Below are positions 47,375-63,292 of a stretch of 64,000 bases of DNA, piece by piece (within the stretch, counting starts at the first letter, position 1; the number at the start of each line of letters is the position of its first letter). The position numbers and the translations under genes were made by a program. A model generated the notes under the pieces. It made no database searches, had not been told where the DNA came from, and saw nothing but the letters and a program-made list of their open reading frames with translations. The DNA comes from Clostridiales bacterium (lineage in GTDB: Bacteria > Bacillota > Clostridia > Christensenellales > CAG-314): positions 164,371-228,370 of the forward strand of contig JAFLVK010000001.1 of assembly GCA_022508345.1 (NCBI GenBank). Reading direction: 5' to 3'.

Positions 47375-47402
47375 CTGCCCAAAACCGCAATGTTTTGGGC
47401 AG
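47375..47402 (+). terminator. Rho-independent terminator of the AraC-GH39 gene; last core feature before the island
   Basis: ctgcccaaaa / ttttgggcag 10-bp stem with an 8-nt loop, followed by a T-rich tail. Confidence 0.7.
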
Positions 47403-47450
47403 TTCAATTTCTCCATTTACTACCACTATTCCTTAATCCCATATCACAAA

Positions 47451-47725
47451 GTCAGAAGCATTTTGACCCAAAATCCAATTTAGGAAATCTTAACCATTTT
47501 CCCTCTTTTTCTCGCTTAAAATACGACGAATTCGTGCTAAAACTAGGATTTTTTAACCACTTAACATCTTTTCTCGTTTGCATATCGGATTTTTCCCCAA
47601 TTTTCCCAAACACGGAACTGGAATCCTTTACATCCGGTGGAATATAACATATACCCCCATCGAATTCCCCAGATTAAAAAGTTGCAAAAATTACATTTCC
47701 CCAATTTTCAATAAATTGGGGAAAA
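47451..47725. repeat. Direct repeat copy A (~275 bp) at the core/island junction, 3' of module 1
   Basis: Aligns with 52978-53250. The core 47531-47725 versus 53058-53250 looks roughly 80 percent identical by eye (not computed). It contains TTTCCCCAATTT twice direct (47592-47603, 47696-47707) and once inverted (47713-47724). The last pair forms a 12-bp hairpin followed by a U-run on the minus strand. Confidence 0.8.
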
Positions 47726-47823
47726 TAGATATCATGATGTATTGAACTGATTTTCATTGGAATTAAAAATAAACATTTATGATTGACCGCTAGTCAATAA
47801 ACTTGGGGACTTCCTATAATTAT

Positions 47824-49719
47824 TTATTTTGTTTTACCATACTGTTTCATCACATCTCTTAGACATATCTCATTCACTTTATCAAAAAAATTATGATCAA
47901 ACATGCTACCGACAAAATAGTTCTCTATACGCAGTTTATATCGCCCGATACTCATTTGATTTTCTTGATAAACTATTTTATCTCTATAATTAAAAATACA
48001 GAAATCACAATCATAGAATTTAAAGAGTTTATAGATATTTACTTCACCCTCGAACACCTTTTTTAGTTTGCGTATCTTAACATAATCTTCAAATAATGTC
48101 CCTCTGTCAAATGGCAAAATAAAATTGTCAAAATCCATGATATACACATCATCCTTTACAATAACACCATCTACTGTTCCAGAGTGTATAACAATGCTCT
48201 TTATACTATAAAATTTTTTGCTTTTAATTTTTATTCTTTTTTTCTCAAATGCTTCAAAAACGAAGTTCATATTGTTTTTGTAAAAAGAAACAATTCGATT
48301 CAACTGCTTTACATCATCTAAATATTTGACTGATTCTCTTGTTTCTAACTCATGTCCAGTTCTACTTTTACATTCGCAAAAAACGAAAGTATCATTCATA
48401 TAAAACACGGCATCACATTCATATTCTTCCCTATCTACATGATGATGCATCTGCACATACGGAGTTTTGGTTAAATCTAAAAATCTATATAAATTTTTTT
48501 CAAAATTATGTCCTTTGATATCAATATTAATATCTTGACTGTTAAACCTCGAAATGACAGACCTCGCTGCGTGAATCCATTTTGTAATAGAAAGACAAAT
48601 GGCATACTTATTGTTTATTGGAATAAATGGATAATCGTATAAATCTGTCGCACCTTTGCGTAGTATCATGTTATCAAAAACGATTGTCGCACTCTCTACA
48701 GGAATTCCATTTTTTACAAATATATTAATCCATTGCTTTTTAGTCTTACAATAAATGTGATTAGATAGAATTTTTGAAAAAGACACAATATCTTTGTTAG
48801 AGTTATTTTGGCTTATTTTATAAATAATCACATAGGCTTTAATCCAATATTTTATTTTAACACTTTTTATTTCGATGTCTGCACTTTCGCAGTAAAAGTG
48901 CTTATCCAATATTTTTTGACTAGTGTACTCCATCACTTTGGGAGTCAAATTTCTAAACGGTTTAATATAAAAATAATATTCATGAAGCGCGTTATTTTCA
49001 TAGATAAAACTCATTATTTTTTCTTTTATATACGGACTCGTGTACTGTGTGAGCCTTATCTTATCAAGTATAGATAGGTGAACTTCTTTATCATTTATTA
49101 TTTCTAAACCATAAATGTTCTTTTTCCAATAATTATATTTTTCATGCCACATGGAAACGTTGTATGAGTTAATTAAATACTCCATCACGCACCTTTTATA
49201 TTTAAATGGTGACGACAAAGCATCTGCGTCATTTAAACTACACATAAACTTACTATCGCTATACACTTTTTCATTGTATATTAAGGACTTTATTGCTTGT
49301 ATGGTAAGTTCCGCATTTTTTTCATATGCCGTGACGCTGTCTGCATGTTTTCCCTTGAAAAAGTCTTTTGCTTTAGCAGACTCGTATTTTTCAACATTAT
49401 ATGATCCCCAATAAAGTAAAAGCGGCAAAATTAAGTTGGGTGGGACAGCATCGATTTTGCTTTGCAACCTTGCGCATTCCTCAAATATAGCATTTATTAT
49501 GTTTATTTCCTCGAGATAAGCTATAGCTTCTTTTATTTGAAGTTTCTCCAAAATGTCATCAACCAACTTATTGAATTTATGAGTCCCACGAACATCAACT
49601 AAAAAGTCACAACTCTTTAATTCTTTAATATTCTCAAGGAAATTTCCATTTTGAATTAAGTTACATAACTCTTCCGTATCACTATTATCAATAATTCTAT
49701 CTACAGTTTTTTTATTCAT
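47824..49719 (-). CDS. Uncharacterised 631-aa protein with PD-(D/E)xK nuclease-like core
   Basis: AT-rich ORF with a 14-nt gap to the upstream gene. GHNFEKNLYRFL...EYECDAVFYMNDTFVFCECKS fits E...D...ExK. The N-terminal ~400 aa has no motif I recognise. Confidence 0.7.
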   Translation of the reverse strand: MNKKTVDRIIDNSDTEELCNLIQNGNFLENIKELKSCDFLVDVRGTHKFNKLVDDILEKLQIKEAIAYLEEINIINAIFEECARLQSKIDAVPPNLILPLLLYWGSYNVEKYESAKAKDFFKGKHADSVTAYEKNAELTIQAIKSLIYNEKVYSDSKFMCSLNDADALSSPFKYKRCVMEYLINSYNVSMWHEKYNYWKKNIYGLEIINDKEVHLSILDKIRLTQYTSPYIKEKIMSFIYENNALHEYYFYIKPFRNLTPKVMEYTSQKILDKHFYCESADIEIKSVKIKYWIKAYVIIYKISQNNSNKDIVSFSKILSNHIYCKTKKQWINIFVKNGIPVESATIVFDNMILRKGATDLYDYPFIPINNKYAICLSITKWIHAARSVISRFNSQDINIDIKGHNFEKNLYRFLDLTKTPYVQMHHHVDREEYECDAVFYMNDTFVFCECKSRTGHELETRESVKYLDDVKQLNRIVSFYKNNMNFVFEAFEKKRIKIKSKKFYSIKSIVIHSGTVDGVIVKDDVYIMDFDNFILPFDRGTLFEDYVKIRKLKKVFEGEVNIYKLFKFYDCDFCIFNYRDKIVYQENQMSIGRYKLRIENYFVGSMFDHNFFDKVNEICLRDVMKQYGKTK

Positions 49720-49733
49720 TCAATATACCCATA

Positions 49734-50987
49734 TTAATTTAAAGCTGAATTATGGACAATAATCGTCTTAGAACTAATGATTTCTCTCGGTTCTGCGAGT
49801 CTTACAATCTCATACTCAAAGCTGGCCACACCTATTTTTTGTTGATATACAGTGAGATTATTTTTCTTTGCAATTTGCATGAGTCGTTCTTTATTCTCTT
49901 TAGATATATCTTTCCCCATATAAATCCCTGTGGCAAAAGGAAACCATATTAAACCCGGCTCTTCTCCGCCGATTACAATTCTCCATTCTTGCTCATTCGA
50001 ATACTTCGGGTTTTTCATAAGCGTTTGCAGATGTAGTTTTGTTGCCATATCTGGATCATGGGAGGTGTTCTTTATTTCGAACAATGTATCATGGTATTGT
50101 AGAAATTGAAATTTATATGAGTTAAATTTCGGTCTTCGTTCCGTATAAAATACAGGTAATAATCCTTTCAACGCATATACTGAACTTTCAACATCCAGCA
50201 AATCGAATCTTATTCCTTGAGTAAAATCATATCTAATACAAAAGCCACCATAATTGTCCGCATATTCTTCCCACATTTTAGGGTTGTTATTAGTTTCAGT
50301 CAAACTGCAAACATATCTTGCTTTTCGATTTAAATCGATTGTAGACGAACACCATTCCTCACAGTGTGCCTTATACCAATCAAGCAATCCCTGTGCTCTG
50401 CCGCGCTGTGATATTTCTTGATCGAACAGCACAATTTTTTTTACAATTTTCTCCCGTTGTTCTATCGGATACTTTTTCTTTATATATTTTTGTGTTCTCT
50501 TAACATTTAATACTAAATCGTCATTATAACAATGTGCAAAAAATATGTTTCTTACTTCTTCTGGCGTTAATGAATTTTCGTCTTTAGAAAGGTTATCTTC
50601 ATTGTTGACATAAATGTAGGAGGCAAAAACAAACCATTTTGCAAGCCTTTTTATTTTACTTTTCGGCAGGTTCTTGATTGAAAAAGGTAGTCTACAATCG
50701 TATGGATCCATAAATTGTTCAGCCGAAGATACCCAAATACTGTTATCTTCTAACGCTTTGAAATTGTTCGCATTGCAACTTCGATATTTAAACAAACACT
50801 TCGGAACCGTCTTCAGGTGATCCAAAATATATCCTAAATCATCAAACTTTTTTCGCTGCTCGGATATTTTCAGCGAAGCCCAAATAGAATTCGGATCTTC
50901 TGACATTTCTCTAAAATACTCTTCAAGCAACATGTTCCTTATGTATCGTTCAGTTTTTTTGAGTCGATATTTTTGTTTTAACTTCAT
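49734..50987 (-). CDS. DUF2971-like protein
   Basis: CLFKYRSCNANNFKALEDNSIWVSSAEQFMDPYDCRLPF reproduces the DUF2971 N-terminal signature (L.KYRs...l....lw.s....fNDP.E), with a later EQEWRIVIG block. RBS is AAGGAGAA. Confidence 0.7.
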   Translation of the reverse strand: MKLKQKYRLKKTERYIRNMLLEEYFREMSEDPNSIWASLKISEQRKKFDDLGYILDHLKTVPKCLFKYRSCNANNFKALEDNSIWVSSAEQFMDPYDCRLPFSIKNLPKSKIKRLAKWFVFASYIYVNNEDNLSKDENSLTPEEVRNIFFAHCYNDDLVLNVKRTQKYIKKKYPIEQREKIVKKIVLFDQEISQRGRAQGLLDWYKAHCEEWCSSTIDLNRKARYVCSLTETNNNPKMWEEYADNYGGFCIRYDFTQGIRFDLLDVESSVYALKGLLPVFYTERRPKFNSYKFQFLQYHDTLFEIKNTSHDPDMATKLHLQTLMKNPKYSNEQEWRIVIGGEEPGLIWFPFATGIYMGKDISKENKERLMQIAKKNNLTVYQQKIGVASFEYEIVRLAEPREIISSKTIIVHNSALN

Positions 50988-51191
50988 TTATTCTCCTTAG
51001 CATTTCGCTCTCACATTTTTATTATTTTGGTCTATAAATAATGAATGAGTGATATACTTATTGCCATGTGCTTGGATGTGATATTCCCATAATAAATTTT
51101 TTTTACCAATTCTCAAAATGTTCACCACGCATTCTAATAACAATTTATTTTACTGCTATCTCATCGCTTTCGAATTTCATAATATTGTCGA

Positions 51192-51512
51192 CTACCTTCC
51201 ACTTCTACTGCCTACAATATTTTTCTTTTTGTTATTATGGTAATGTCCGTGAAATTGTATAGACTTGCTTTTATTCGTTTTATTGAGACTAATATATGTA
51301 GTAATATTAGTTGTTTTACTAACCGGTTGTCTCATTTCTACTTTTGCAATGTCAATTTCAACTTTGTTGCGATGTATCTCCTGGTTAATTTGCCAATATT
51401 TACTCGGTTCATAAAATTCACTTACATTAGATCTTTTACTACGTAAGCGCTGAATATTTTTATCTGCAATTCTAATTCTCTCTTGTGGTGTTTTATTTTT
51501 AAATATAAACAT
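51192..51512 (-). CDS. Small basic protein (106 aa), unknown function
   Basis: Start moved to ATG 51512 (MFIFKNKTPQERIRI), which has AAGGTGGA 8 nt upstream and removes the overlap with the RNase III-like gene. Lys/Arg/Asn-rich. No homology recognised. Confidence 0.55.
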   Translation of the reverse strand: MFIFKNKTPQERIRIADKNIQRLRSKRSNVSEFYEPSKYWQINQEIHRNKVEIDIAKVEMRQPVSKTTNITTYISLNKTNKSKSIQFHGHYHNNKKKNIVGSRSGR

Positions 51513-51531
51513 TTCTAAATTCCACCTTAAA

Positions 51532-52515
51532 TTATTTCTCATCTTGTTCGAGTACATATAACAGCATTGAGTATGCTGATGCCTTTTTAGCTTCTTTCTT
51601 TAGAGGCGCTGTCTCCCTAAAGCAAATATCATATTCTTCTATACTACATGTACAAGTCCAAAAAGTATTGTTGTGCACGTCCAATTGTTCTTCGAATAAA
51701 TACTCGGGCATCGAAAAATATTCCTTTTGCGCCAATTCCTGCAATTGATTTATTGCATTGTCTAACGATGGTTCGTCGATTTCATCTGCCATAGAGTACA
51801 TCCTCCCACTATCTTCTAGATAGCGATAAACTTGTTTTGCTGCCTCCATTCGGGCTTCATTCTTTGTCATTCCATCGCCTGAAAATTTGTAGCCATCAAC
51901 ATTTACTGTACAATGATAATAATCCCACGTAAACTTAAATCTATAATTCGGCGCCTTGCCAAATTCCTTTTGATGCCACTGTTGAACTAAAGCGACATAG
52001 TTATTGTCCTCAGTGAAACTATTTTGAATATAATGATCAATATCCAACATAAGACCGACTACTTCTTGTATGATTTCAAGATCCCAATTACAGTCCAGTG
52101 TTACAGCTCCTACGATAGCTTCAAATAAATCCTCTTTAACATGAGTATCCTCGGCAACATTTTGCTTAATATCGCCGTTTCCCATTATCAAATATTTTTG
52201 AAATCCGAACAACTCAGTTCTGCTGGCGAGCATTTTGCTTTTCACAAGCCGTTTCTTGATTTCGGTCAGCTTTCCTTCAGTGCGTTTTGAGATAAATTCT
52301 TCTTCCTCAGTAAATTCGCCATAATACTCTATAAGTGTTTTCATTACGGCAATATCAAGAGCTTTATCTCCAATAAACTCCAATACCTCATTATCTTCAC
52401 TTTCTGGATGCTCTTGCGAATAGGATTTTCTGATAAACGCCTGCTGTAACAACATTTTGTTATCAAACTGATATCCAATTTGTTTTTCAATTTCTCTTAG
52501 TTCTTTTTTTGTCAC
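51532..52515 (-). CDS. RNase III-like ribonuclease with two C-terminal dsRBD-like domains
   Basis: RNase III signature NEVLEFIGDKALD and second acidic cluster KEDLFEAIVGAVTLD. dsRBD-like 1 is NYRFKF...GDGMTKNEARMEAAKQVYRYL. dsRBD-like 2 is MPEYLFEE...TAPLKKEAKKASAYSMLLYVL. GTG start with GGAGG 10 nt upstream. Confidence 0.8.
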   Translation of the reverse strand: MTKKELREIEKQIGYQFDNKMLLQQAFIRKSYSQEHPESEDNEVLEFIGDKALDIAVMKTLIEYYGEFTEEEEFISKRTEGKLTEIKKRLVKSKMLASRTELFGFQKYLIMGNGDIKQNVAEDTHVKEDLFEAIVGAVTLDCNWDLEIIQEVVGLMLDIDHYIQNSFTEDNNYVALVQQWHQKEFGKAPNYRFKFTWDYYHCTVNVDGYKFSGDGMTKNEARMEAAKQVYRYLEDSGRMYSMADEIDEPSLDNAINQLQELAQKEYFSMPEYLFEEQLDVHNNTFWTCTCSIEEYDICFRETAPLKKEAKKASAYSMLLYVLEQDEK

Positions 52516-52736
52516 AAAAAAATACCTCCGTTGTAAAATTTACACGAAGGTATAATAATAGCCTAACGATAAGAGTATAGTATTCCCCTCTAAATTTCGT
52601 TAGGCACCATATATTAAAATAAATTACATAAATCATTTTTATTTGAATTAAGCCACTGCCAACCCAATTCAAATAACCCTATTTTATGTTCAGCATTTTA
52701 ATCTATTATACCCTCGGGTTAGATTTATTTTAGCAT

Positions 52737-52765
52737 CTCTTAACTAATTTGTCAATAGATGCATC
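52737..52765 (-). promoter_or_regulatory. Near-consensus promoter (TTGACA-17-TAAAAT) for module 1, giving a ~215-nt leader
   Basis: Minus strand reads TTGACA aattagttaagagatgc TAAAAT. The leader contains hairpins atttgaatt/aattcaaat (52643-52676) and gcctaacga/tcgttaggc (52561-52604). Confidence 0.55.
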
Positions 52766-52977
52766 AAAATTATATGTTGTTTTACGTAAATTCAAAACAA
52801 CTTGAACTAACGACATAATATTCATCATTGTTGCTTTTACATAATTAAGACTACCATTTACATAGCAATCGAACAATAAGTTCATTACCGTTCAATGCTG
52901 CCACTATGTTTTTTGTTGTTATGCAAAATTTCTTTAGAGATTTTGATACCATATTTTGTTATATATTGTCGAAAAAT

Positions 52978-53250
52978 GTCAGAAGCCTTGACATCATAAA
53001 TTCGATTTTGAATATTTTAACCATTTGACATCATTTTGCACAAAAAAGACGGTAAACTCGTGATAAAATTAGGATTTTTTAACCACCTTACCAATTTTCT
53101 CGTTTGCACAACGGATTTTTCCCCAATTTTCCCATATACGGAACAGGAATCCTTTACATCATTTAAGATGTAACATATACCTTATCGGATTTGCCAGATT
53201 AAAAAGCAGCAAAAAATAACTTTCCCCAATTTATTGAGAAATGGGGAAAG
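52978..53250. repeat. Direct repeat copy B (~273 bp), 3' of module 2 and upstream of module 1
   Basis: Aligns with 47451-47725. The hairpin tttccccaattt...aaatggggaaa (53221-53249) starts 7 nt after the stop of 53256-53852 and is followed by UUAUUUUUU on the minus strand. Confidence 0.8.
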
Positions 53251-53255
53251 TTTGA

Positions 53256-53852
53256 TTAGTTGTTATCTTCAATATTCTTATAATGTGCTTTGTATACCAC
53301 GGTATTACCCGTGACGTTATCCAACCGTACATTTCTAAATTTTTTATATCTAATTTTGTTATCTATTAATGTAAAAACTACGGTAACATAAGTCTCTGTC
53401 TCTCTTATGGCCGGAAAATTCGGAAATATAAAATAACCCATAATTGCCGAATATGCCGGAACTACAAGCGGCACCTGTAGTCGTAATGATTTACTATCCT
53501 GTGGTATGCCGCTTCTCTGACCAAACGTTAGATTAAACGGTGCGATATCATAAATTGAACCTACTGTTTCAGCATGATACTGCATATTTTCATATTCTAT
53601 GTAAATATCTGCAATTGTACCACCCACCGAAGAATTATTGTAAAAACTTAATCTTAAATCCACCAAAGTTTTAAAACCCACACCTTCAAATACAGCATCT
53701 GCATATGACAATGTGCCAAAATTCTTCTTTAGCCTAACACCTATTTTAGGTTTTGAATGCCGAAAGTGTATAATACAAGAAACGACTGCTGCAATTGCTG
53801 AAACTGCAGCACAAATCGAAGAAATCATTGCTATTAACTCTGACGTTTTCAT
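53256..53852 (-). CDS. N-terminally membrane-anchored 198-aa protein, unknown function (last gene of module 2)
   Basis: One strong TM helix (LIAMISSICAAVSAIAAVVSCII) followed by a beta-rich soluble domain. RBS AAGAGG. Confidence 0.65.
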   Translation of the reverse strand: MKTSELIAMISSICAAVSAIAAVVSCIIHFRHSKPKIGVRLKKNFGTLSYADAVFEGVGFKTLVDLRLSFYNNSSVGGTIADIYIEYENMQYHAETVGSIYDIAPFNLTFGQRSGIPQDSKSLRLQVPLVVPAYSAIMGYFIFPNFPAIRETETYVTVVFTLIDNKIRYKKFRNVRLDNVTGNTVVYKAHYKNIEDNN

Positions 53853-53903
53853 TTGTTACCTCTTAAAACGCGTAAAATCTGATTTATTAAACACATGCAC
53901 ATT

Positions 53904-55355
53904 TTAACTGTTATTGATTTCATCGTACTTTTTTAATAAAAAGTCACTAATTGTATTGTCGATTTTCCTTTGTTGCAATAATTCAATTATTTCCTCATCC
54001 GTTATATGTATTATCCAGCCACGCCCATCCTTTACTGTGTCCATTTCACATTGAATAAATTTTTGCGGATCATCCAAATATCTACAGCAAATAATACCGA
54101 ATTTTCCTCTATTTGCAGAAAATCTCCCTGACATTTGATCCAATTCTGGGTTTGCAATGTCTTTAGAATAATTCTTACACTCTACCATAATTAAACTGCA
54201 TGGTACATTATAGGTCGTACCTAAATAATGTAAGAATCCACTCTCAGCAATATTATTGAACACAATATCTATGCGCTTTCTGCCGTCATTTATCTCCTTC
54301 TCGATTTTGGGATGAGCAATATATGGATAGAAAAGCAACTCTAAAATTCCGCTAATCAGTCGATGATACCTTGTCGCATGCTCACTTCCCGGTGGTATAG
54401 ATTTAAGCGCCTCTATAAGATTATCGATAATTTCTTCTATATCTTCATCGCTTATATCATCTAATTCTCCATATGATATCTTTTGAATAATCTCATTTTT
54501 AAATTTGCTCAGCACATCAGGATTTTCTTTTGTAAAACGTGATAACCAATTTTTTGTTAAAAATTCGCCACGACTTTCGTAATCTGCTACAATGTCTTTC
54601 TTACAAACCTTAGCATTTTTTAGTGATCCATTTTTGTCGTATGTTTTTCGAACCAAATGCGTGTCCTCTTTTAAGTTTTTCTCTTTTAAAAATTCAAGCA
54701 CATATTGATTCAAGAATTCCTGTGCGTTGTAATATTTTGCGTCAGAAACTAAATTTTTAGGAAACAATAGATATCTTTTCCCATCTATTACCAGTGTTTC
54801 GTGGTGTCCTCTATCCCAACGTGTAGCAGTTTTATTCCAATAGTAGCCAACCTCAGCATTAGTTAACTTTATACCCAATAACTCACACTGTTCCTTAGTG
54901 TACTTAATAAGTGGATATTTTATAATATTAGCAACCATATCAGAAACCTTGTCCTTATCCACACCTTCGACGAACAATCTTAAATCTTCAATATGTTCTG
55001 CTACCCCATCATTTATTGCGCAACTTTTCTTGATTGCTTCAAAAATCGTTCGCGCGTTTACTCGTCCAACGCCTTTACCCGCCGGCTTGCCACGACTCAT
55101 TCCTAAGCATATCTCATTAACTTCTCCCAAATGATTAAAAAGCTCAAACGCACGTTCTTCATCATATTGTAATAAGTATAAAAATCTATTAAAAAAGGTT
55201 TCTATGTACTCATTACATTCAGCTAAAAAAGCATCTTCCTTCCGGGAAATATAATAAGGATCGAAAAACATATATGTGTCGAGTTCTATTTCATAGTCAT
55301 AAAAATCCAATTCCAGTTGAGACTTCTTAAGCCCTAATTTCTCACTTATTTTCAT
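53904..55355 (-). CDS. 483-aa protein with novel N-terminal region and C-terminal restriction-endonuclease-fold (Mrr/NERD-like) domain
   Basis: C-terminus EHATRYHRLISGILE...GRKRIDIVFNN...SLIMVECKNYSKDIANPELDQMSGRF fits E...D...ExK. Start set at ATG 55355 after GGAGGAATT. Confidence 0.7.
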   Translation of the reverse strand: MKISEKLGLKKSQLELDFYDYEIELDTYMFFDPYYISRKEDAFLAECNEYIETFFNRFLYLLQYDEERAFELFNHLGEVNEICLGMSRGKPAGKGVGRVNARTIFEAIKKSCAINDGVAEHIEDLRLFVEGVDKDKVSDMVANIIKYPLIKYTKEQCELLGIKLTNAEVGYYWNKTATRWDRGHHETLVIDGKRYLLFPKNLVSDAKYYNAQEFLNQYVLEFLKEKNLKEDTHLVRKTYDKNGSLKNAKVCKKDIVADYESRGEFLTKNWLSRFTKENPDVLSKFKNEIIQKISYGELDDISDEDIEEIIDNLIEALKSIPPGSEHATRYHRLISGILELLFYPYIAHPKIEKEINDGRKRIDIVFNNIAESGFLHYLGTTYNVPCSLIMVECKNYSKDIANPELDQMSGRFSANRGKFGIICCRYLDDPQKFIQCEMDTVKDGRGWIIHITDEEIIELLQQRKIDNTISDFLLKKYDEINNS

Positions 55356-55368
55356 AATTCCTCCTAAA

Positions 55369-57171
55369 TTATAATATATCAGCAATAGTAATTTTTATAT
55401 ATTCGCGCAAATACTTAAATGGGAATGGCACAACTGTTAACTGTCCGTTGCGAACAAATGTAACCGACATTAATGGCAGCAAATCATCAAACATAACAGT
55501 TGCATTTTTGTGCGCTTCTATTAATCTAATATTAGCTGCTCGATTAATTTTTCTCTTCATTCCTTCTCCGATTTCGCCGACAAAATAATATTGTATGCCA
55601 TCAATTTTAAACATCTTAATATCTAAGCACGCTGATAGTAGTTTTTCTCGCATTGCTTTACCACGCAGCTTTGTATTTCCGCTTTCAAGTTCTGCTTTGA
55701 TACTATCAATCATCGGAATAGTAAACCAATCGGTATCTTTAATAATGTTAATTTCATTTTTCGAGTTTTTTATAATACCGTTAATCTTTTCCGATCTTAA
55801 TTTGGCATCCTCAAATATTTCAACACATTCGCTATATTCTGTTAAGTTAAACAAATCTAACTTCGTTTCTCTAAATTCAAATGTACCATCTGGATGTATA
55901 TTCATAAAGAAAGATCTATCCTCATGCGTCACGCCAAAAGAAATGTTTTCATTGTAACCAAGCTTGTCCCATTCAAACAAAGAAATGCGTTTTGTCTTGA
56001 TGTCGTCCTTAATTAACAATTCGTTAACTACCGTTTTAATCGCAAATTCAGCACAGTCGACGAAATCTTCCAATGTGATATGCTGAATAACCGCATCGTT
56101 ATATTCTTCATAAGCATCCTCATTTCCGCCATAATACTCGGCATTATGAATAACGCATATATTTAAACTTTGTTTGTTGATTTTTTTGCTTAAGTTTGCA
56201 TTTATACTGTATGTATCATATAAAAGTTGTTGGATTTCCGAACAAAATCTTTTTGAGTATTCGTCAGATATTTTATCAACAATGTTTATTGACTTGGAAG
56301 TCAAAATCGTCTCGATACGTTTTTTATTTTCTCGTTTTTCCACATGTGAATAATCAAGTGAAGAATACTCCTCTATCTTTTCGAGCTTTATTTGCGCATA
56401 TTTTGCATGCTTGCCATTAAACTCATTTAAAACTGAATACAAAACGCCTAGCTTACAACAATTAAATTTGTCGATGTCTTCCAAATTTAAAAATGGAATT
56501 TCAATCTTTTTGCCTTCTATTTGTCTTAGTATAAAGGCACCACCTTTATCATCTTTCAACTTGCGTTTTAATGTATAATGTGCTGAAATGACATATTGTG
56601 GATATTCGTCAAATTTTCGCTTTTCGAACACTATATGATTGCGTAATTTAATTGATGTAAAAGTATGAACATTGAACAATAAATGAAAGTCTTTCGTTAT
56701 TCTAATGTCTAGGCAAGGAATTTGCCATATGATTTCATTAGTTTTTTCCTTAGATTTTTTCAACCATTGGGGATGAAAACAGTATAAGTGTCCAGTTAAG
56801 TTATTAAACTTCAAGTTTGTACTCTCAAAATTTCCCATGCCATTTAACAATAATTGCAACGAGATATAATGAGGAAGTTGAGAAAAATTGAGTTGTTGTA
56901 TAGACAAGTTTTCAGATCCTTCGCAACTGTTTAGGATTAGGAGTAATGAATGTCTGTTTTCTTCATTATGTTTCATTAATACATATAACGATTTGCCTTT
57001 TTCAAAATACAATGAATAAACAGAATTTCCAAGGGATGGTGCATCTAATATAAATGCACCACTCCGAATATAATTCTCAGATGTTGATATTTGAAAAACA
57101 TCAAATTGTTTATTTAATTCTGTTATATTCAAAGAGTAGTTTACTCTATTAGTACTAATTGGAAAACTCAT
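55369..57171 (-). CDS. 600-aa protein, possible catalytically inactive Argonaute/PIWI-like protein
   Basis: No catalytic motif found. The C-terminal TVVPFPFKYLREYIK resembles the PIWI C-terminal [ST]VP.P..YA motif. LNICVIHN...YEEYNDAVIQHI resembles a MID strand-helix. The gene overlaps the helicase gene by 17 nt and has AAGGAG 8 nt upstream of its ATG. The fold assignment is inference only. Confidence 0.6.
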   Translation of the reverse strand: MSFPISTNRVNYSLNITELNKQFDVFQISTSENYIRSGAFILDAPSLGNSVYSLYFEKGKSLYVLMKHNEENRHSLLLILNSCEGSENLSIQQLNFSQLPHYISLQLLLNGMGNFESTNLKFNNLTGHLYCFHPQWLKKSKEKTNEIIWQIPCLDIRITKDFHLLFNVHTFTSIKLRNHIVFEKRKFDEYPQYVISAHYTLKRKLKDDKGGAFILRQIEGKKIEIPFLNLEDIDKFNCCKLGVLYSVLNEFNGKHAKYAQIKLEKIEEYSSLDYSHVEKRENKKRIETILTSKSINIVDKISDEYSKRFCSEIQQLLYDTYSINANLSKKINKQSLNICVIHNAEYYGGNEDAYEEYNDAVIQHITLEDFVDCAEFAIKTVVNELLIKDDIKTKRISLFEWDKLGYNENISFGVTHEDRSFFMNIHPDGTFEFRETKLDLFNLTEYSECVEIFEDAKLRSEKINGIIKNSKNEINIIKDTDWFTIPMIDSIKAELESGNTKLRGKAMREKLLSACLDIKMFKIDGIQYYFVGEIGEGMKRKINRAANIRLIEAHKNATVMFDDLLPLMSVTFVRNGQLTVVPFPFKYLREYIKITIADIL

Positions 57172-60100
57172 GAATCAAACTCCTTATTTCTCTAAATGCC
57201 TTTACACTGACCTGCGGTTTTTTATAACCGAAAAACAAACATGGAACATCTACAATTGTGACTTCGCCGGAACTCCGAACAATTGGACGTTCTTCTTTGG
57301 TCAAAATGTTAATAGTCAAAACGCATTTGCATCCACATTTTTTTGCTTTACAAATTATTTTTGATCTCATTTTTTCTTTATCTATAGTCATAGATTCATG
57401 CCAGTGTTTAAAATCAACATATATAGGTGCGTCTTTAACCTTAAAATCAAAACACTCAAATAAGTCATTATCGTTTATTTCATCTAGGTCTATGTCAAAA
57501 TAACGCTTTAAGAGATACCTGCCAACGAATTCACCCAATGCGCCTTTATATATGTTGTTATATAAGGCTGGGGACACAATAAAATTACCCGGTTTAAATG
57601 TGGTTGCATAGTGTTTTTCATTAAATTGATCTTTTACACCTTCTATTTCCATTAAAACATTTAGTCGCGCATCGTGGGCTGACACTTCATAGTTAAAATG
57701 ACTTCTTTGCTGGAATGAAACTAATATGTTATTAAAATCTGATTCTTGCTGGTAAAATATGCGATCTTGTACTTGCGGCAATTTTACATACAGCTGATTT
57801 ATCATAAAATTTTTATCCATATCAATTTCATTTCTAGAGAATGTTGGATTTCGTAACACCATTTCTCGCATTTCCTTCCAATCCTTCATGCTATCATCAG
57901 TCCAATCCTCTCGCAAAATGTTCTGTATAAATTTATTAACACGAACAGATAGTAAAGAGGCCGTATTTTCGGCGATATTGCTATTGTTGATACATGATGT
58001 TGATTGCACCTTACTCATCAGTGCCAAAAACTCAGGATTAAACAAATTACTATTAATAATTGTTTTATCAATATTTTCATGCAATCTACTATCTGCTAGA
58101 ATATAAATTTTTCTTTTCTTCTGATTGGTTCTGCAGATACGACCTATTGCTTGAATTATGGTCCGTGTGCAAAGCAGTTTAACATCCTGCAGGTCATATA
58201 AATTTTTAACCCATTCTGAACGTGCATGACCAGTCATGTAGCATCTAAAAGCCTTTTTTATATGGGAGAACGCTTCCGTCATTGAAAGCTGTCCATTCTG
58301 CTGTAAAAACTCAACATGGAAAATGTATTTGGCAAAGTCCTCCTCTATCAAATGTTCGTCTAGTCGAACCAATAAATTTGTTGGTTTGTCTAAATATATA
58401 GCATCAAAATCTTTCTCGTTTCTAGAATCAAAATCATTTACACCAATTAGCCGTTTTCTATCACCTTGCGGTATAGGATATTGTAAGTTTTGTCCAGCTC
58501 CAATAGTTTGATAAACGGAGATGACGAATAATCTTTCCCCTTTTGCTAAACGCGAAATAATATGTTCTTTTCGAGCATCGTATTCATCTCCATCCAACTG
58601 AATAACTGTATCCTCTTGAAAAACCTCTTTTTTGTTTTCTTCCCATATGTGTTTGAAAATTTTCAACAAAAAATCAATATCAAGCATTGCATTATTTTTT
58701 CGAGGATGTCTGGTTAATACACATAAGAATGATTGAATATCATCATGTTGAACGAAAAATTTAAAAGCGGATGCTACTCGACAGTATCTTTTCTTATCGT
58801 AATTATTACTGTCATCGGAGAACATTATTTCTAAATTTTCATAAACATCATAAACGCGTTCTGTCTTCAAAACTTCTTGCCATGCAGATAGACCATAATT
58901 TGCCTCTGAATTTTCACCAATGATGGACACATCAATATCTATATTGTCATAGCCTTTTGTAGCAATTGCATATTGATCGCTTAACCGCTTCAGATCTTCT
59001 TGCGAGACCTTGCAAAATGCAGTCTTCATTTTTGCTTGTAAATAATCCATGTCATAATTTCCTATATTCGTTGGAATTGTAGCCGTTGCTGAAATACCAA
59101 TTACCTTGGCACGCTCGCAAATTTTCAACAATATTTTTTCTGGAGTATTTTGAAAAGAATACATCATTATTTTAGACTGCATATCATGAAAGGTGTCGTT
59201 CTCAAATGCGTAATATCTGAAACCCCGTTCATAAAACGACAGGTCATAGTTTGCTCCCTCAATGTTGGTAGACCTTTTGGGCGATGCTGATAGTATTTGT
59301 AGTGTAAGGTATTCTATCGAATCATTTGACAATCTGAATTCTGACAAAACCGATCTTATTGCTGATTCCATCGAAAAATCGTCTTCGCCAGTTTTATGTC
59401 TCTCCCGCTTCGTTTCCAGATAATTTATTGCAAGAATGCTGACGCCAATTTGAAAATACGTAATAAATCCGCGCAATTTGCCAAGCATAACATGGATATT
59501 TTGCGAATCATGCTGCGGCTTTTTATCCGCAAACTTTATTTCATTTAGTCTTAACTTTTCATTACTGTATGTATAGATGAAAGATTTATTACCATTCAAT
59601 ATCGAATGAAATTGGTGATCTTGAAATAAAAAATTCTTATTTTGATCTTCTGCTTCCACACTAGTTCTATGACTAAATTTTAAAGAAAAATCTTTGTATA
59701 ATACCTCTGCTTTTGACCTTATATCATCAATAATACCATCAAGTGACTGATCGGCGAATCTACTAGCTTGTCTCTGTCGCGATGCGGTTGTTAAGACAGA
59801 GGGAAATTCAGTGGTTTGCAAACCAGAATAAATTTCTCTAAACAATTCAATATAATCAATTTTATCTCGTAACCCATTTTCTATAATATTGTTTAAAATC
59901 GTTGCCTTTGTTGCGTCAAACTCATCTATAAATATTACTGCATCTTTAATTATGTCTGAATTGTAAAACATATATGACGGTTCAACAATGGTTGAATTTC
60001 TAGAAAGAAATTTATCCATGCTCATAAAAATAATTTGTTTGCTTTGTGTAAATACAGCAGGATATAACCTGCCTAACCATTGCCAACGCTCACTTGTTTT

Positions 60101-60625
60101 TATGGCATAAAGCTTATCTTTAACGGATGTAAATTCTTTATTAAGATACGCTTGTATTAAGCCTCGGAATGCGGGCTCTGTTTTTTCGCGAAGATTTTTC
60201 TCGATGGTCTCCACTAATTGTTTAGTCGTATTATCAGATTTTTGTCTTTTGATAAAAAGAAGATCTTGTTTAAGTGCTCTATATTCGTCTGTTTTTGTTA
60301 TTTCAGATGGCATACTTTTTTCTAATTTGGCATTCCAGTTGGTTAATACAGTATCAATATTGGAATCCAAAAAGACAAATTTTTCATCAAAAAGCACTTG
60401 TTCATTACGTCTAGCAAACCTTTCTTTTAATTCATCAATCGGCAGGTTCTTTTTTTGCGTGGTAATAAAAAACACTTTTTTCTTATCAAACTTATGCGAC
60501 AGCACTGCATCACAAATATAGTCTAAAACAGAATGTGTTTTACCAAATCCTGTTGGCATATCTATTAGTAATAACCCGTTCGATTTGTCATTATTCTCGC
60601 AGTATTTTTTTATGATTTGATACAT
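57155..60625 (-). CDS. SF2 (DinG/DdmD-like) helicase with C-terminal PD-(D/E)xK nuclease-like domain
   Basis: Motif I LIDMPTGFGKTH, II VIFIDEFDAT, III VIGISATATIP, V-like QTIGAGQNL and VI IIQAIGRICR. The C-terminus is GALGEFVGRYLL...ECFDFKV...IYVDFKHW. Start set at ATG 60625 after GAGGTG. Confidence 0.85.
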   Translation of the reverse strand: MYQIIKKYCENNDKSNGLLLIDMPTGFGKTHSVLDYICDAVLSHKFDKKKVFFITTQKKNLPIDELKERFARRNEQVLFDEKFVFLDSNIDTVLTNWNAKLEKSMPSEITKTDEYRALKQDLLFIKRQKSDNTTKQLVETIEKNLREKTEPAFRGLIQAYLNKEFTSVKDKLYAIKTSERWQWLGRLYPAVFTQSKQIIFMSMDKFLSRNSTIVEPSYMFYNSDIIKDAVIFIDEFDATKATILNNIIENGLRDKIDYIELFREIYSGLQTTEFPSVLTTASRQRQASRFADQSLDGIIDDIRSKAEVLYKDFSLKFSHRTSVEAEDQNKNFLFQDHQFHSILNGNKSFIYTYSNEKLRLNEIKFADKKPQHDSQNIHVMLGKLRGFITYFQIGVSILAINYLETKRERHKTGEDDFSMESAIRSVLSEFRLSNDSIEYLTLQILSASPKRSTNIEGANYDLSFYERGFRYYAFENDTFHDMQSKIMMYSFQNTPEKILLKICERAKVIGISATATIPTNIGNYDMDYLQAKMKTAFCKVSQEDLKRLSDQYAIATKGYDNIDIDVSIIGENSEANYGLSAWQEVLKTERVYDVYENLEIMFSDDSNNYDKKRYCRVASAFKFFVQHDDIQSFLCVLTRHPRKNNAMLDIDFLLKIFKHIWEENKKEVFQEDTVIQLDGDEYDARKEHIISRLAKGERLFVISVYQTIGAGQNLQYPIPQGDRKRLIGVNDFDSRNEKDFDAIYLDKPTNLLVRLDEHLIEEDFAKYIFHVEFLQQNGQLSMTEAFSHIKKAFRCYMTGHARSEWVKNLYDLQDVKLLCTRTIIQAIGRICRTNQKKRKIYILADSRLHENIDKTIINSNLFNPEFLALMSKVQSTSCINNSNIAENTASLLSVRVNKFIQNILREDWTDDSMKDWKEMREMVLRNPTFSRNEIDMDKNFMINQLYVKLPQVQDRIFYQQESDFNNILVSFQQRSHFNYEVSAHDARLNVLMEIEGVKDQFNEKHYATTFKPGNFIVSPALYNNIYKGALGEFVGRYLLKRYFDIDLDEINDNDLFECFDFKVKDAPIYVDFKHWHESMTIDKEKMRSKIICKAKKCGCKCVLTINILTKEERPIVRSSGEVTIVDVPCLFFGYKKPQVSVKAFREIRSLIHEFSN

Positions 60626-60785
60626 AAAACACACCTCATCTTATTTGTACAAAAATTGTTCTACCATCGATTTGGGTTTCCTCTCATAAGAGTGAAAAAT
60701 AATTATCAGGAATTCCCTTCGATAAAAGTAGATATATAATATACCTATACAAATATATTTTTGTTAAGCACAATTAAAAATATTA

Positions 60786-60815
60786 TAAAAAGCTATTGCT
60801 CAATTACAATAGCTT
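60786..60815 (-). terminator. Rho-independent terminator ending module 3, upstream of module 2
   Basis: Minus sense aagctattg-taattgag-caatagctt followed by TTTTTAT. It begins about 15 nt after the stop at 60830. Confidence 0.7.
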
Positions 60816-60829
60816 CATATTGATATCGC

Positions 60830-61597
60830 TTAGGATAAAGTTTTATTTTTTATATGATAGGCTATATTACGTGCCTCGCAAAACTCTATTACTTGGTGAG
60901 CTGCATTGTTGAAAAACTCTTTGTGCTGTTTATATGTTGTTGCCACCTTGTTGTAGTGAATACGCCCAAAGATTATTTTGTCAACAAAGCTTATTTCTTC
61001 TAATATTTGTGCCAAATCTTGCTCGCACATATTAGGTGTAGGATACGGCTCAACGCTTACCCATGTCCTAAACCCTGCATCGTGTAACGCACGTAGAGCG
61101 GCTATTCTTTCAGGATACGGTGCTGTGTTACACTCATATTGCACGCGAAAATGATCATCCAAGGATACCAAGGTAATACCATATTCATTTTCATGAGAAT
61201 AGTTGACGAGTTCAATTGGCAAAAGACCTTTTGTCAATACAGTGCACTTTATACCGTTATCATTTAGTGTACCTATTATTTGTAGACTTAAATTTTTTAC
61301 TTCGTCCTGACCATACATAAAAGGATCTGTCATAAAGGACAATTGGACCGATTTAATTTTATTCTTGTATTTAGGTATTTCCTTGTTCAGTATTTCAAGA
61401 GCATTCCCGACAAGCTTGGGCTCACACCAATCTTCATAAGTTTTAACTTGACCAAATCTCTTCTTCATCATCATCGCATAACAAGGATATTTACAACCAT
61501 GTGAACAGCCTTGAACATGATTTATTGTATAATCCCCATATTCCACACCTGTTTTATATAAAAGAGATTTTCGGTTGATCTTTTTCACTTTTTCCAC
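60830..61597 (-). CDS. Radical-SAM-like (SplB/COG1533-like) protein with atypical three-Cys motif CX3CX3C
   Basis: NHVQGCSHGCKYPCYAM resembles the NPY.GC.HGC.YCYA cluster motif but has one extra residue. Downstream blocks FMTDPF, VLTKGLLP, RIAALRALHDAGFRTWVSVEPYP follow the COG1533 layout. 13-nt overlap with the TcmP-like gene. Confidence 0.7.
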   Translation of the reverse strand: MEKVKKINRKSLLYKTGVEYGDYTINHVQGCSHGCKYPCYAMMMKKRFGQVKTYEDWCEPKLVGNALEILNKEIPKYKNKIKSVQLSFMTDPFMYGQDEVKNLSLQIIGTLNDNGIKCTVLTKGLLPIELVNYSHENEYGITLVSLDDHFRVQYECNTAPYPERIAALRALHDAGFRTWVSVEPYPTPNMCEQDLAQILEEISFVDKIIFGRIHYNKVATTYKQHKEFFNNAAHQVIEFCEARNIAYHIKNKTLS

Positions 61598-62786
61598 CTC
61601 ACAGAAACAGTTTTCCCGCGTCCTTCAGACATAAAAGTTGTTGCCTTTCCATTGTTTGTGGTTTGAGGATTGCGAATTACTTCGATGATTCCAGCTTTTT
61701 CCCATGTTTTTAATATGTCTTTGATGTGATTCGTAGCGCAGATTGCTCCATATTCAACAAAAAAGTTCGCCAAAGCCTCATGTAGTGAAATTGCTGTTGT
61801 ATATTTAGAAAAATGGCGCCTTGCTTTTTCTTTGATGTCATCTATGTCTATTATCTCATTGTCAAAGGTCTCTTCAAATAGCGACATTTGTCCATAATTT
61901 TGAATATCTCTAAGGTTTTGCCAACGATTATAAATATTGTCTACCATCAACAGACATCCATCTTTGTGATTAGTGGCATGAACCATTCTGTACTTTGGTC
62001 TTTGTCCTGGTTTTATTCTAAGTGGCAAATTCAAAACATATTTGTAACTATGACTTAGTCTTCTACAATATTCGTCGGCAAATGTTTTCTCTGCTTCATA
62101 GCCGTCGATTTTTGACGCTTTATAATCTTTAATAATTTCTTGCCAATAATCTCCACCTGCAATATCGTTAAGGTCTTGTATTGACTTTTCGGAAGCGACA
62201 AATCTACTGGGTTCATATTCGACTAGGTCATCAAACAATTCCTTATCATCGAATCGTGTTCCTAAAGCATTACAAGCCTCTCTGATAAAACCGAATGAGT
62301 TCAAATTTATTAGCAACTCAATTGAATTAAAGCCACTTCTTGCAAAACCGTCAAACTGCCAACAATTAAGTGCTTTTATACCATATGGATCAATGTATAA
62401 GAACACATTACAATTTCTTTTTTTTTCAAGATGTCGAGAATATTATCCTCATATTTACCCGAATAGATATTTACATACTGATATCCGCACAAATTTTCGC
62501 GTAAATCATCAGCATAATTTAGATCAATAAAATTGGTGCTGATATCAACAGCATCCATAGTTGTGCTACTCACGCAATTTTGTATTATATCTAACGCAAT
62601 CAGTGGCGAACCAGGTTTGCCATCGTCAAACTTACCCTTTCCGGCAAAGCAATCGACGTAAACCAACGGTTTGTATGTATGTAAAATTTTTTGAACGTAC
62701 GGTCTAAAATAACAACCAAGTAGTTCGTCCTTTACCTCAGACCATGCCTTCTTCTCTTTGAAAAAATCATCATTATTTTTCGACAC
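61585..62786 (-). pseudogene. TcmP-like (three-Cys-motif partner protein, methyltransferase-fold-like) gene split by a frameshift at an A9 tract
   Basis: The N-fragment 62376-62786 (KKAWSEVKDELLGCYFRPYV...LVYVDCFAGKGKF...GSPLIAL) and C-fragment 61585-62406 (FLYIDPYGIKAL...) are adjacent frames. The C-fragment frame stays open upstream through EKKRNCNV into the run of nine T (62418-62426, A9 on the coding strand). A 1-nt change there fuses them into one protein of about 400 aa. Confidence 0.7.
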
Positions 62787-62808
62787 TTAATAATCTCCTC
62801 TTTCGCAT

Positions 62809-63267
62809 CTATTTGTCTAGTACAACTACTCCTTTTTCAGTTTCCAGGAGTATCCCTTCTAGCATGCCGCCTTGATTTATGTGGCCGACAACAATTTCGT
62901 CCGCAAGTTCGATAACTTTGAGGTTGCGAATCCGAGCACGTTCGCGAGTTACAATGGGGATATCATCATCGAAGGGTGATACAATCAACATTTGCCCGCT
63001 TTCCACTGCTGCACGGTATTTGGCAGGACACTTGACAAAGATACTTCTTGCCAACACCATTACAATTGGACTTGTCCCCTGCAACAAAATATCCAAGATG
63101 TCCATTTCCAATCTGCTTTGAAAGCCGGAAATTACACACCTCTTTTGCTTTTTAATTTCACTTACCCAGTCATAAGATGCCAGAACAGATTTGCTACTGT
63201 ATTTATCCGAGCAAAGAAAAGCTATCTTTTGAGTATTTAATAGTTGTATATTACCTATTGATTTCAT
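62809..63267 (-). CDS. DprA/Smf-like (SLOG superfamily) Rossmann-fold protein
   Basis: KIAFLCSDKYSSKSVLASYDWV...RCVISGFQSRLEMDILDILL...SPIVMVLARSI...GQMLIVSPF follows the DprA core layout (ivGsR...vvSG.A.GiD...tiaVla.g...llsp). Confidence 0.6.
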   Translation of the reverse strand: MKSIGNIQLLNTQKIAFLCSDKYSSKSVLASYDWVSEIKKQKRCVISGFQSRLEMDILDILLQGTSPIVMVLARSIFVKCPAKYRAAVESGQMLIVSPFDDDIPIVTRERARIRNLKVIELADEIVVGHINQGGMLEGILLETEKGVVVLDK

Positions 63268-63292
63268 TTCGTTAAATAGCTACTTAACACCG

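Follow-up and report, generated by a model that had tools for sequence, protein, structure and literature searches.

In budding yeast, dimers of Dcr1 measure and dice long double-stranded RNA (dsRNA) with a layout in which a ribonuclease III (RNase III) domain is followed by two dsRNA-binding domains (dsRBDs). For bacteria, the forms listed in a 2021 review are RNase III and Mini-III only (PMC8708148), and the same review cites Bardwell et al. (1989) for the autoregulation of the Escherichia coli rnc operon through its own 5' leader. The present analysis deals with a gene of the Dcr1-like layout found in a 64,000-nt stretch, hereafter the window, of the genome of a Clostridiales bacterium (GCA_022508345.1, contig JAFLVK010000001.1, positions 164,371 to 228,370). 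An initial annotation of the window had drawn attention to a stand-alone RNase III-like gene and to a small basic protein encoded next to it. The cassette was found to be organized as follows:

52727-52755, minus strand: promoter-like site, TTGACA-17-TAAAAT with a TG extension (11/12 matches)
52516-52725, minus strand: structured 5' leader RNA of ~210 nt, with a three-way junction (P1-P2-P3) and an expression platform
51532-52515, minus strand: RNase III paralogue of 327 aa, with a GTG start
51521-51528, minus strand: ribosome-binding site AAGGTGGA of the small open reading frame (ORF), read from the sequence
51192-51512, minus strand: small basic protein of 106 aa, isoelectric point (pI) 10.5, with its ATG at 51512

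Across the family of this enzyme the constant partner is the leader RNA and not a protein, and the centre of interest is the leader RNA together with the enzyme rather than the enzyme together with the small basic protein. We give about an even chance to the reading that the locus is a self-contained, mobile accessory cassette that encodes a self-limiting dsRNA nuclease in a defence-island or mobile-element setting.

The ORF at 51532-52515 is translated into a protein of 327 aa (pI 4.7) that includes both of the intact acidic clusters reported in the initial annotation, NEVLEFIGD and KEDLFEAIVGA, and the residues E43, E46, D50, E80, D129, and E132 were invariant across 19 members of the family. 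Pfam detected Ribonuclease_3 / Ribonucleas_3_3 (PF00636 / PF14622, E = 7e-18 and 3e-14), which places the protein in the RNase III superfamily, and two dsrm stretches, as against exactly one C-terminal dsRBD in the housekeeping rnc. An AlphaFold model based on 19 homologues (mean predicted local distance difference test, pLDDT, 88; predicted TM-score, pTM, 0.71) begins directly with the RNase III domain, with no extra domain ahead of it, and is divided as follows:

52021-52515, minus strand: RNase III domain, aa 1-165
51811-51999, minus strand: dsRBD1, aa 173-235, alpha-beta-beta-beta-alpha
51553-51756, minus strand: dsRBD2, aa 254-321, alpha-beta-beta-beta-alpha

The tandem dsRBDs announced in the initial annotation were thus recovered both by Pfam and in the predicted structure, where a linker of ~18 aa separates them, and the KKEAK motif is kept in dsRBD2. 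Residues ~1-238 matched bacterial RNase III in Foldseek and in sequence searches of the PDB, and the C-terminal part matched the tandem-dsRBD proteins R2D2, TRBP, and PKR in the latter searches. The top Foldseek match was the RNase III and dsRBD region of Arabidopsis DCL3 (355 aligned columns), and the nuclease fold was superimposed on solved RNase III domains with a root-mean-square deviation of 1.4-2.3 Å. The domain order equals that of Dcr1 and RTL2, and the affinity of the sequence is bacterial. The enzyme is predicted to be an active homodimeric dsRNA endonuclease, and the extra dsRBD would stretch its footprint toward longer duplexes.

The possibility that this gene is a housekeeping rnc with a duplicated dsRBD was considered, since the full length of the NCBIfam profile TIGR02191 (the rnc equivalog) can be aligned with residues 9-231, which also fit solved bacterial RNase III structures. 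This explanation is barely credible. The score against TIGR02191 was 152.1 bits, below the cutoff of 166.25; the gene is located in a GC-poor island; its neighbourhoods are variable, rich in defence or recombinase genes and devoid of housekeeping synteny; 445 relatives were confirmed among 185,579 species genomes; and in one sample the gene was found at different chromosomal sites in two related strains or species. NCBI names the homologues "ribonuclease III family protein" (the one with 68% identity) or "hypothetical protein". Within the window, the stretch that was searched for a canonical rnc, no second RNase III was found. The sub-cutoff score, the NCBI naming and the variable neighbourhood support the view that the enzyme is a dedicated RNase III paralogue, neither built nor placed like the housekeeping rnc, and on this point, as on the two dsRBDs, the initial annotation was borne out.

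Scans with NCBIfam, PADLOC, and PHROGs gave nothing past RNase III on the function of the enzyme (PHROG 28637 is a family of unknown function), and no family of PADLOC-DB 2.0 (E <= 0.01) matched the RNase III enzyme or the small protein. Literature searches directed at a bacterial RNase III with two dsRBDs, or at a defence system based on RNase III, brought up neither, in agreement with the earlier statement that no defence system built on such an enzyme was known.

The family is widespread yet patchy. More than 100 protein clusters were retrieved, with 44-68% identity, 96-100% query coverage and lengths of 325-396 aa. In a collection of 185,579 GTDB species genomes, one per species, 445 relatives were confirmed by tblastn (E <= 1e-3). 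The best 80 of these 445 cover query residues ~1-327 with 38-68% identity and belong chiefly to gut Clostridia (Christensenellaceae, Oscillospiraceae, Lachnospiraceae) and to Anaeroplasmataceae; among them, two come from metagenome-assembled genomes labelled Alphaproteobacteria and Bacteroides (L046 and L055; L-numbers are the labels of the collected loci). Cultured strains are among the 80 as well: the cassette is present in Lachnospira multipara LB2003, Pseudobutyrivibrio sp. ACV-2, Pumilibacter intestinalis, and Hominiventricola spp., and the leader matches at full length in all of these isolates except ACV-2. About 15 IMG/VR contigs carry the gene. In cultured phages, tblastn detected fragments of canonical-type RNase III only and no full-length member of the family, and in plasmids it gave a single match, a distant 506-aa protein on pRUMAL01 of Ruminococcus albus 7. 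This "ribonuclease III domain-containing protein" of the megaplasmid (L122; NC_014824.1, 76931-78451) shows 29% identity over 95% of the query, has an N-terminal extension and represents a further accessory RNase III lineage.

The promoter-like site at 52755-52727, a strong one, sits ~210 nt upstream of the start codon, and its TTGACA box and -10 region are invariant in six close homologues. The stretch between the two is conserved above expectation among close homologues, and its minimum free energy (MFE) is -60.7 kcal/mol, with z = -6.1 against shuffled controls. When the family loci were searched with a covariance model built from six sequences, and with nhmmer, 72 of the ~96 RNase-bearing loci proved to have the leader just ahead of the RNase gene, including those of proteins with 42-50% identity. 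It is kept in about three quarters of the loci, regardless of the gene that follows the enzyme. The elements of the leader, including the Shine-Dalgarno (SD) sequence and the strands that pair with it, are located as follows:

52704-52716, minus strand: 5' strand of P1 (CGAGGGUAUAAUA), containing an SD-like GAGGG/GAAGG
52613-52702, minus strand: P2, a hairpin with ~34 bp of imperfect pairing, as long as a substrate of RNase III
52561-52605, minus strand: P3 hairpin (GCCUAACG...CGUUAGGC), with a variable insert
52545-52557, minus strand: 3' strand of P1, with the anti-SD CCUUC at 52546-52550
52523-52552, minus strand: alternative hairpin, the SD sequestor, in which the anti-SD CCUUC pairs with the SD GGAGG (52525-52529)
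52516-52522, minus strand: U7 run directly before the start codon

P1 is a closing helix of 13-14 bp at the 5' end, P2 comprises helices 3-6 of the model, and P3 is a hairpin of 8 bp. The structure was supported by covariation in two alignments. In the one fitted to the model, 86.9% of the cells were paired, in comparison with 38-47% in slid controls, 47 of the 56 pairs showed double changes, and the covariation score was 0.457 (0.07-0.13 in the controls). When 25 diverse sequences were aligned independently with MAFFT, 80.9% were paired (~42% in the controls), changes on both sides were seen in 40 of 57 pairs, and the score was 0.407 against ~0.11. In the unfitted alignment, 7 of the 13 pairs of P1 (helix 1) show changes in both strands; for P3, which is helix 6 in the unfitted alignment, helices 7 and 8 were 98.6 and 93.9% paired.

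Most of the family, distant members included, has a near-invariant apical loop in P2, UAUGCAAGUG (alignment columns ~103-115; e.g., L039 at ~7850), but the clade of the window, the one with the small protein, has a shorter loop in its place. Two further ideas about this loop were discarded. A leader peptide starting at an AUG in the P2 loop was rejected, as it has no SD and the position of its stop varies, and a kissing contact of the P2 loop (UGCAAG) with the 5' strand of the sequestor (CUUGUA) was dropped because it suits one clade and not others.

Rfam 15 gave no relevant match for the window leader at E <= 1, nor for the L039 and L077 leaders at E <= 10; rncO should be one of the families in the set searched. 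A scan of viral contigs with the leader sequence pattern returned two true leaders, both truncated, and one chance match in an AT-rich giant-virus contig; thus, no leader was found detached from an RNase gene. Fixed position, helix covariation and alternative pairing of the SD, the generic marks of a cis-regulatory RNA, were all observed. The leader is a well-supported new class of cis-regulatory RNA with no Rfam match.

The 3' end of the leader can adopt either of two folds. The real SD, GGAGG (GAAAGG in some clades), pairs with CCUUC and the bases that follow it in a hairpin of 9-12 bp, after which a conserved U-run abuts the start codon. Since the hairpin pairs the anti-SD with the SD and is followed by a U-run, it would act as an SD sequestor and possibly as an intrinsic terminator. 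The same anti-SD is part of the 3' strand of P1, and the SD-like GAGGG/GAAGG of the P1 5' strand would therefore act as an anti-anti-SD. When the 3' segment was folded alone, the sequestor hairpin was formed in 66 of 70 leaders, and it was also the one selected by RNAalifold on the unfitted alignment. Across the 68 full leaders, the mean difference between the P1 and the sequestor states was 0.1 kcal/mol, and the MFE structure contained P1 in 26 and the sequestor in 40. Two mutually exclusive folds of nearly equal predicted energy are the signature of a bistable switch; in this model, the P1 state would be ON (SD free, antiterminated) and the sequestor state OFF (SD masked, with possible termination).

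If the locus encodes a self-limiting nuclease, the enzyme would bind or cut the ~34-bp P2 of its own leader, and this binding or cutting would break P1, free the anti-SD and shut off translation, possibly together with transcription read-through. The result would be a negative feedback analogous to the autoregulation of E. coli rnc. Other dsRNA would titrate the enzyme, and the leader would then be derepressed. The role of such a cassette would most likely be to protect the host or the element from phages or plasmids, or to serve in competition between elements, through the destruction of long dsRNA. In a bolder version, which we regard as unlikely, a Dicer-like nuclease is held at a low set-point or neutralized by the bistable leader and is unleashed once the leader decays or is outcompeted by long dsRNA of a phage or plasmid invader, so that RNA and protein form an immunity module.

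A different use of the same RNA was also weighed, namely a type III-like RNA-antitoxin or abortive-infection module. According to it, the ~200-nt leader would be produced mainly as a separate, labile RNA ending at the hairpin and U-run, which occupies the four dsRBDs of the dimeric enzyme as a pseudo-substrate and thereby neutralizes it; a shut-off of host transcription by an invader would free the enzyme, which would then degrade cellular and phage duplex RNA. In favour of this, the endoribonuclease gene comes right after a conserved structured RNA, with a hairpin and U-run in between, the RNA and not a protein is the constant partner, the context is one of defence islands and mobile elements, and the length of P2 fits a dimer with extra dsRBDs. 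Known type III systems, in contrast, use tandem repeats that are processed by the toxin, and the window contains a single copy of the leader, with no tandem repeats in 50900-53300 except a 19-nt AT repeat. In addition, the SD is part of the hairpin, an arrangement that suits a translational switch acting in cis no less well, and the terminator, a weak one, went unrecognized in the scan. On balance, an RNA antitoxin is unlikely here.

Several observations weigh against the self-limiting cassette. That P2 is bound or cut by the enzyme itself, and not by host RNase III or another factor, is a step that we purely infer. About a quarter of the family loci gave no match to the covariance model, one of which (L113) carries the small partner. 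The near-invariant loop of P2 suggests a sequence-specific recognition beyond simple dsRNA cleavage, and the hairpin with the U-run was not called a terminator by a simple scan. As for the defence setting, the association is qualitative; housekeeping neighbours (SpoVAD, MgtE, and RecO) were also present in the census of neighbouring proteins described below; and PADLOC has no model for the enzyme.

The 106-aa protein had been proposed as the partner of the enzyme. Its ORF is right behind the enzyme gene, as the initial annotation had it, at a distance from the RNase stop codon to the ATG at 51512 that is 19 nt and not the 20 nt given there; the strong ribosome-binding site and the basic character of the product also held, and the gene is conserved downstream of the enzyme in part of the family and was called in an independent assembly too. 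In the predicted structure, a confident helical hairpin formed by aa 9-28 and 36-61 precedes a disordered, basic tail rich in Asn, Thr, and Lys, and the tail contains an invariant motif of the H..HGHYH type (HGHYH). Foldseek returned generic helical hairpins only (E > 0.7), and matches of the protein to DUF7366 and phrog_555 were below threshold. Homologues were found directly downstream of the enzyme, with 58-80% identity and all with different flanks, in L001/L008, L110, L111, and L007, and also behind the more distant enzymes of L113 (RNase 43% identical) and L118 (36%), so that seven distinct contexts with the enzyme are counted, the window and six others. The protein database holds 45 clusters of the small protein, and the homologue searches gave one metagenome locus and no viral locus.

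A conserved unit of enzyme and small protein, as first proposed, was not upheld. A search with a hidden Markov model (HMM) of the small protein gave no match in the enzyme loci of ~50% identity, and in L115/L116 and L117 the protein is present without any RNase III. These solo homologues of the HGHYH protein are located at L115:8001-8294, in L116 and at L117:7475-7783; one solo locus adjoins a 268-aa protein, a KAP NTPase and an integrase, and another is prophage-like, with YopX and a helix-turn-helix (HTH) repressor. Since it is confined to a subclade and is found without the enzyme, the small protein is a clade-specific accessory factor and not the defining partner. In the clade of the window it would act as a co-transcribed accessory modulator (a cofactor or an inhibitor) and not as a core component.

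Other genes occupy the downstream position elsewhere. In 17 loci (including L021:8959-9177, L024, L028-L030, L035, L037, and L039-L041), the RNase gene is directly followed, often with an overlap at its end, by a gene for a 61-88-aa XRE-HTH protein with sub-cutoff similarity to RstR, MqsA, or HipB; this layout resembles a toxin-antitoxin pair. A protein of ~468 aa with no Pfam domain, either overlapping or within ~120 nt, was found in 13 loci (L013:9062-10468, L016, L022, L027, L033, L087, and others). It has a weak match to HEC-07 and, in PADLOC, a weak HicA-like C-terminus (of the dsRBD fold), and may be an alternative partner. A Thg1-like protein was found in three loci, and many loci have no small downstream gene.

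These genes bear on another explanation, a protein toxin-antitoxin pair in which the RNase III is the toxin and the antitoxin or regulator is the 106-aa basic protein here and the XRE-HTH protein elsewhere. The bicistron is tight, with the 19-nt gap in the window and overlapping genes in other loci; the enzyme and the small protein are of opposite charge (pI 4.7 and 10.5); the pair persists over an RNase identity range of 36-68%; and the XRE-HTH proteins of the 17 loci resemble, below cutoff, RstR-, MqsA- and HipB-type repressors and antitoxins. We nevertheless regard a protein antitoxin as distinctly unlikely, since no downstream gene is family-wide, the small downstream gene is absent from many loci, the small protein is found alone in L115/L116 and L117, and the helical hairpin into which it is predicted to fold gives no hint of function.

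None of the neighbouring protein-coding genes is common to the whole family. In 15 loci, nearly all of them IMG/VR contigs, two large serine recombinases were found just upstream of the enzyme. The defence neighbours in the window are DdmD/DdmE-like, PDC-M36A, and DUF2971/PDC-S31 genes; those of other loci are HsdR; AbiH, PIN, and GmrSD adjoining TubZ/TubR-like genes; type III restriction-modification, WYL, and Pycsar; or a Pycsar cyclase with PDC-S01. In a qualitative count, known defence genes were located within ~8 kb of the enzyme gene in the window, L001, L004, L010, L028, and L110. The census of neighbours (147 proteins from 46 loci) included AbiEi, AbiH, type II restriction endonuclease and methyltransferase, MADS, AriA, and PDC-S01. 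L001 and L108, both from ENA sample ERZ27293309, contain cassettes with 68% identity at different chromosomal sites, one flanked by LacI/ABC transporter genes and the other by AraC-GH39, a pattern compatible with separate insertion events in related strains or species. Taken together, the variable sites, the defence islands and the element edges support the idea that the cassette is an accessory and mobile gene inserted at many chromosomal positions, and the neighbourhood alone hints at a role in defence. The survey of homologue contexts proposed in the initial annotation thus gave recurrent known defence genes (HsdR, AbiH, Pycsar, type III restriction-modification, and others), although in qualitative terms.

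In the window itself, the enzyme lies outside the usual rnc neighbourhood, in the AT-rich island that the initial annotation had described. The GC content is 0.31-0.34 from ~47.4 kb to the end of the window and 0.43-0.51 in the rest, and PADLOC matches to DdmD, DdmE, PDC-M36A, and PDC-S31 were obtained within the island. Its features, apart from the cassette, are:

47400-64000, no strand assigned: GC-poor defence island that hosts the cassette and continues past the end of the window
47824-49719, minus strand: 631-aa protein
49734-50987, minus strand: DUF2971/PDC-S31 protein, flanking the RNase cassette
53256-53852, minus strand: 198-aa protein with a hydrophobic N-terminus
53904-55385, minus strand: PDC-M36A candidate defence protein (DUF8370), flanking the RNase cassette
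55369-57171, minus strand: DdmE-like protein of 600 aa, whose C-terminus matches PADLOC DdmE (E = 2e-8)
57155-60634, minus strand: DdmD-like helicase-nuclease of 1159 aa (PADLOC DdmD, E = 1e-47)
60830-62786, minus strand: weakly radical-SAM-like protein and split TcmP-like gene (sub-threshold matches)

The 631-aa and 198-aa proteins had zero matches in the Pfam, NCBIfam, PADLOC, and PHROGs scans. The DdmD-like gene followed by the DdmE-like gene (55369-60634, minus strand) resembles a divergent anti-plasmid pair of the DdmDE type in a gut Clostridia genome. A DUF2971 (Pfam) protein and a PAPS-reductase cluster are also located near the RNase and small-protein pair of L113; the DUF2971 protein of L113/L114, 25% identical to that of the window, is close to the pair, and the association may therefore recur. 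The radical-SAM-like protein, of 255 aa, reached 57 bits against a cutoff of 410 for "radical SAM mobile pair protein B" and 37 bits for Pfam Radical_SAM. The TcmP-like gene consists of two ORFs, 62376-62786 (profile positions 2-121) and 61585-62406 (131-256), both below cutoff, and this could be due to a frameshift or to a genuine split.

The genomic setting also bears on two explanations in which the enzyme would not attack invaders. In the first, it would serve RNA housekeeping within the element, silencing type I toxin mRNAs, processing antisense transcripts or controlling copy number. Serine recombinases often adjoin the gene in IMG/VR contigs, and precedents exist: RNase III of Bacillus subtilis is essential only through the silencing of prophage toxin mRNAs (PMC3531473), and one of the three RNase III homologues of Synechococcus affects plasmid copy number (PMC5829567; PMC8708148). 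Set against this, the neighbourhoods among which the cassette moves are unrelated and share neither a target locus nor an element backbone, it is surrounded by defence genes in the window with no recombinase or replication genes in view, and neither a full-length member in cultured phages nor more than one very distant plasmid member was found. We consider this role quite unlikely. The second, counter-defence, is very improbable. The nuclease of an element would destroy duplexes of host immunity (e.g., crRNA:tracrRNA), or the dsRNA of the element itself before it is sensed. The gene is present at the element edge in some predicted viral contigs, and the suppression of silencing by a viral RNase III has been described (PMC8315922). 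Class 1 RNase III suppressors of viruses play such a part in plants. Most members, however, are chromosomal and near host defence genes rather than in phage genomes, and no anti-defence neighbours were recognized.

The enzyme would represent a third, widespread bacterial form of RNase III beside the housekeeping enzyme and Mini-III, accessory and mobile, with a eukaryote-like layout, and it moves in the company of other immune genes. Should invader dsRNA be its target, as proposed for the self-limiting cassette, the recognition of dsRNA, a pillar of eukaryotic antiviral immunity, would join the defence repertoire of bacteria; if RNA and protein form an immunity module, bacteria would have a dsRNA-triggered antiviral nuclease with an RNA as sensor or antitoxin. 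The leader, with about 70 examples, offers a testable model for the restraint of a potentially toxic nuclease, and the presence of the cassette in cultured isolates makes experiments feasible.

In comparison with known systems, the enzyme shares with the bacterial class 1 RNase III of E. coli, Aquifex aeolicus, Thermotoga maritima, and Campylobacter jejuni the RNase III domain, the full acidic set and a dsRBD, with the best matches over residues 1-238, and the homodimeric dsRNA-cleaving mechanism of that class would be expected of it. It differs from them in the second dsRBD (aa 254-321), which is well conserved, the sub-cutoff rnc score, the accessory distribution and the family-specific leader. 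The E. coli rncO leader is likewise a structured 5' leader with a long duplex upstream of an RNase III gene, and the self-limiting logic proposed here is the same; the present leader differs by the absence of an Rfam match and by its three-way junction and bistable anti-SD/SD platform, and self-cleavage is in this case a proposal. With budding-yeast Dcr1, Arabidopsis RTL2 and the C-terminal part of plant DCL proteins, the likeness is one of architecture only (RNase III, dsRBD, dsRBD). The enzyme of the window is closer to bacterial RNase III (E = 8e-26) than to Dcr1 of K. polysporus (E = 6e-4) and lacks the N-terminal domain of the Dcr1 type. No sign was found that small RNAs are produced or that an Argonaute protein is dedicated to the enzyme; the DdmE-like neighbour has no counterpart in the other loci and is part of a distinct system that targets DNA.

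Type III toxin-antitoxin systems of the ToxIN type also have an endoribonuclease gene after a conserved non-coding RNA with a hairpin and U-run, in a defence context, whereas here there are no tandem RNA repeats, the enzyme belongs to an unrelated superfamily and the hairpin overlaps the SD. Finally, the leader resembles ribosomal-protein leaders and T-box-like switches in its two exclusive helices that share a strand, its SD-sequestering or terminator hairpin and its upstream sensor domain; it differs from them in that the sensor domain is a new fold belonging to no Rfam family and its ligand is presumed to be the encoded enzyme.

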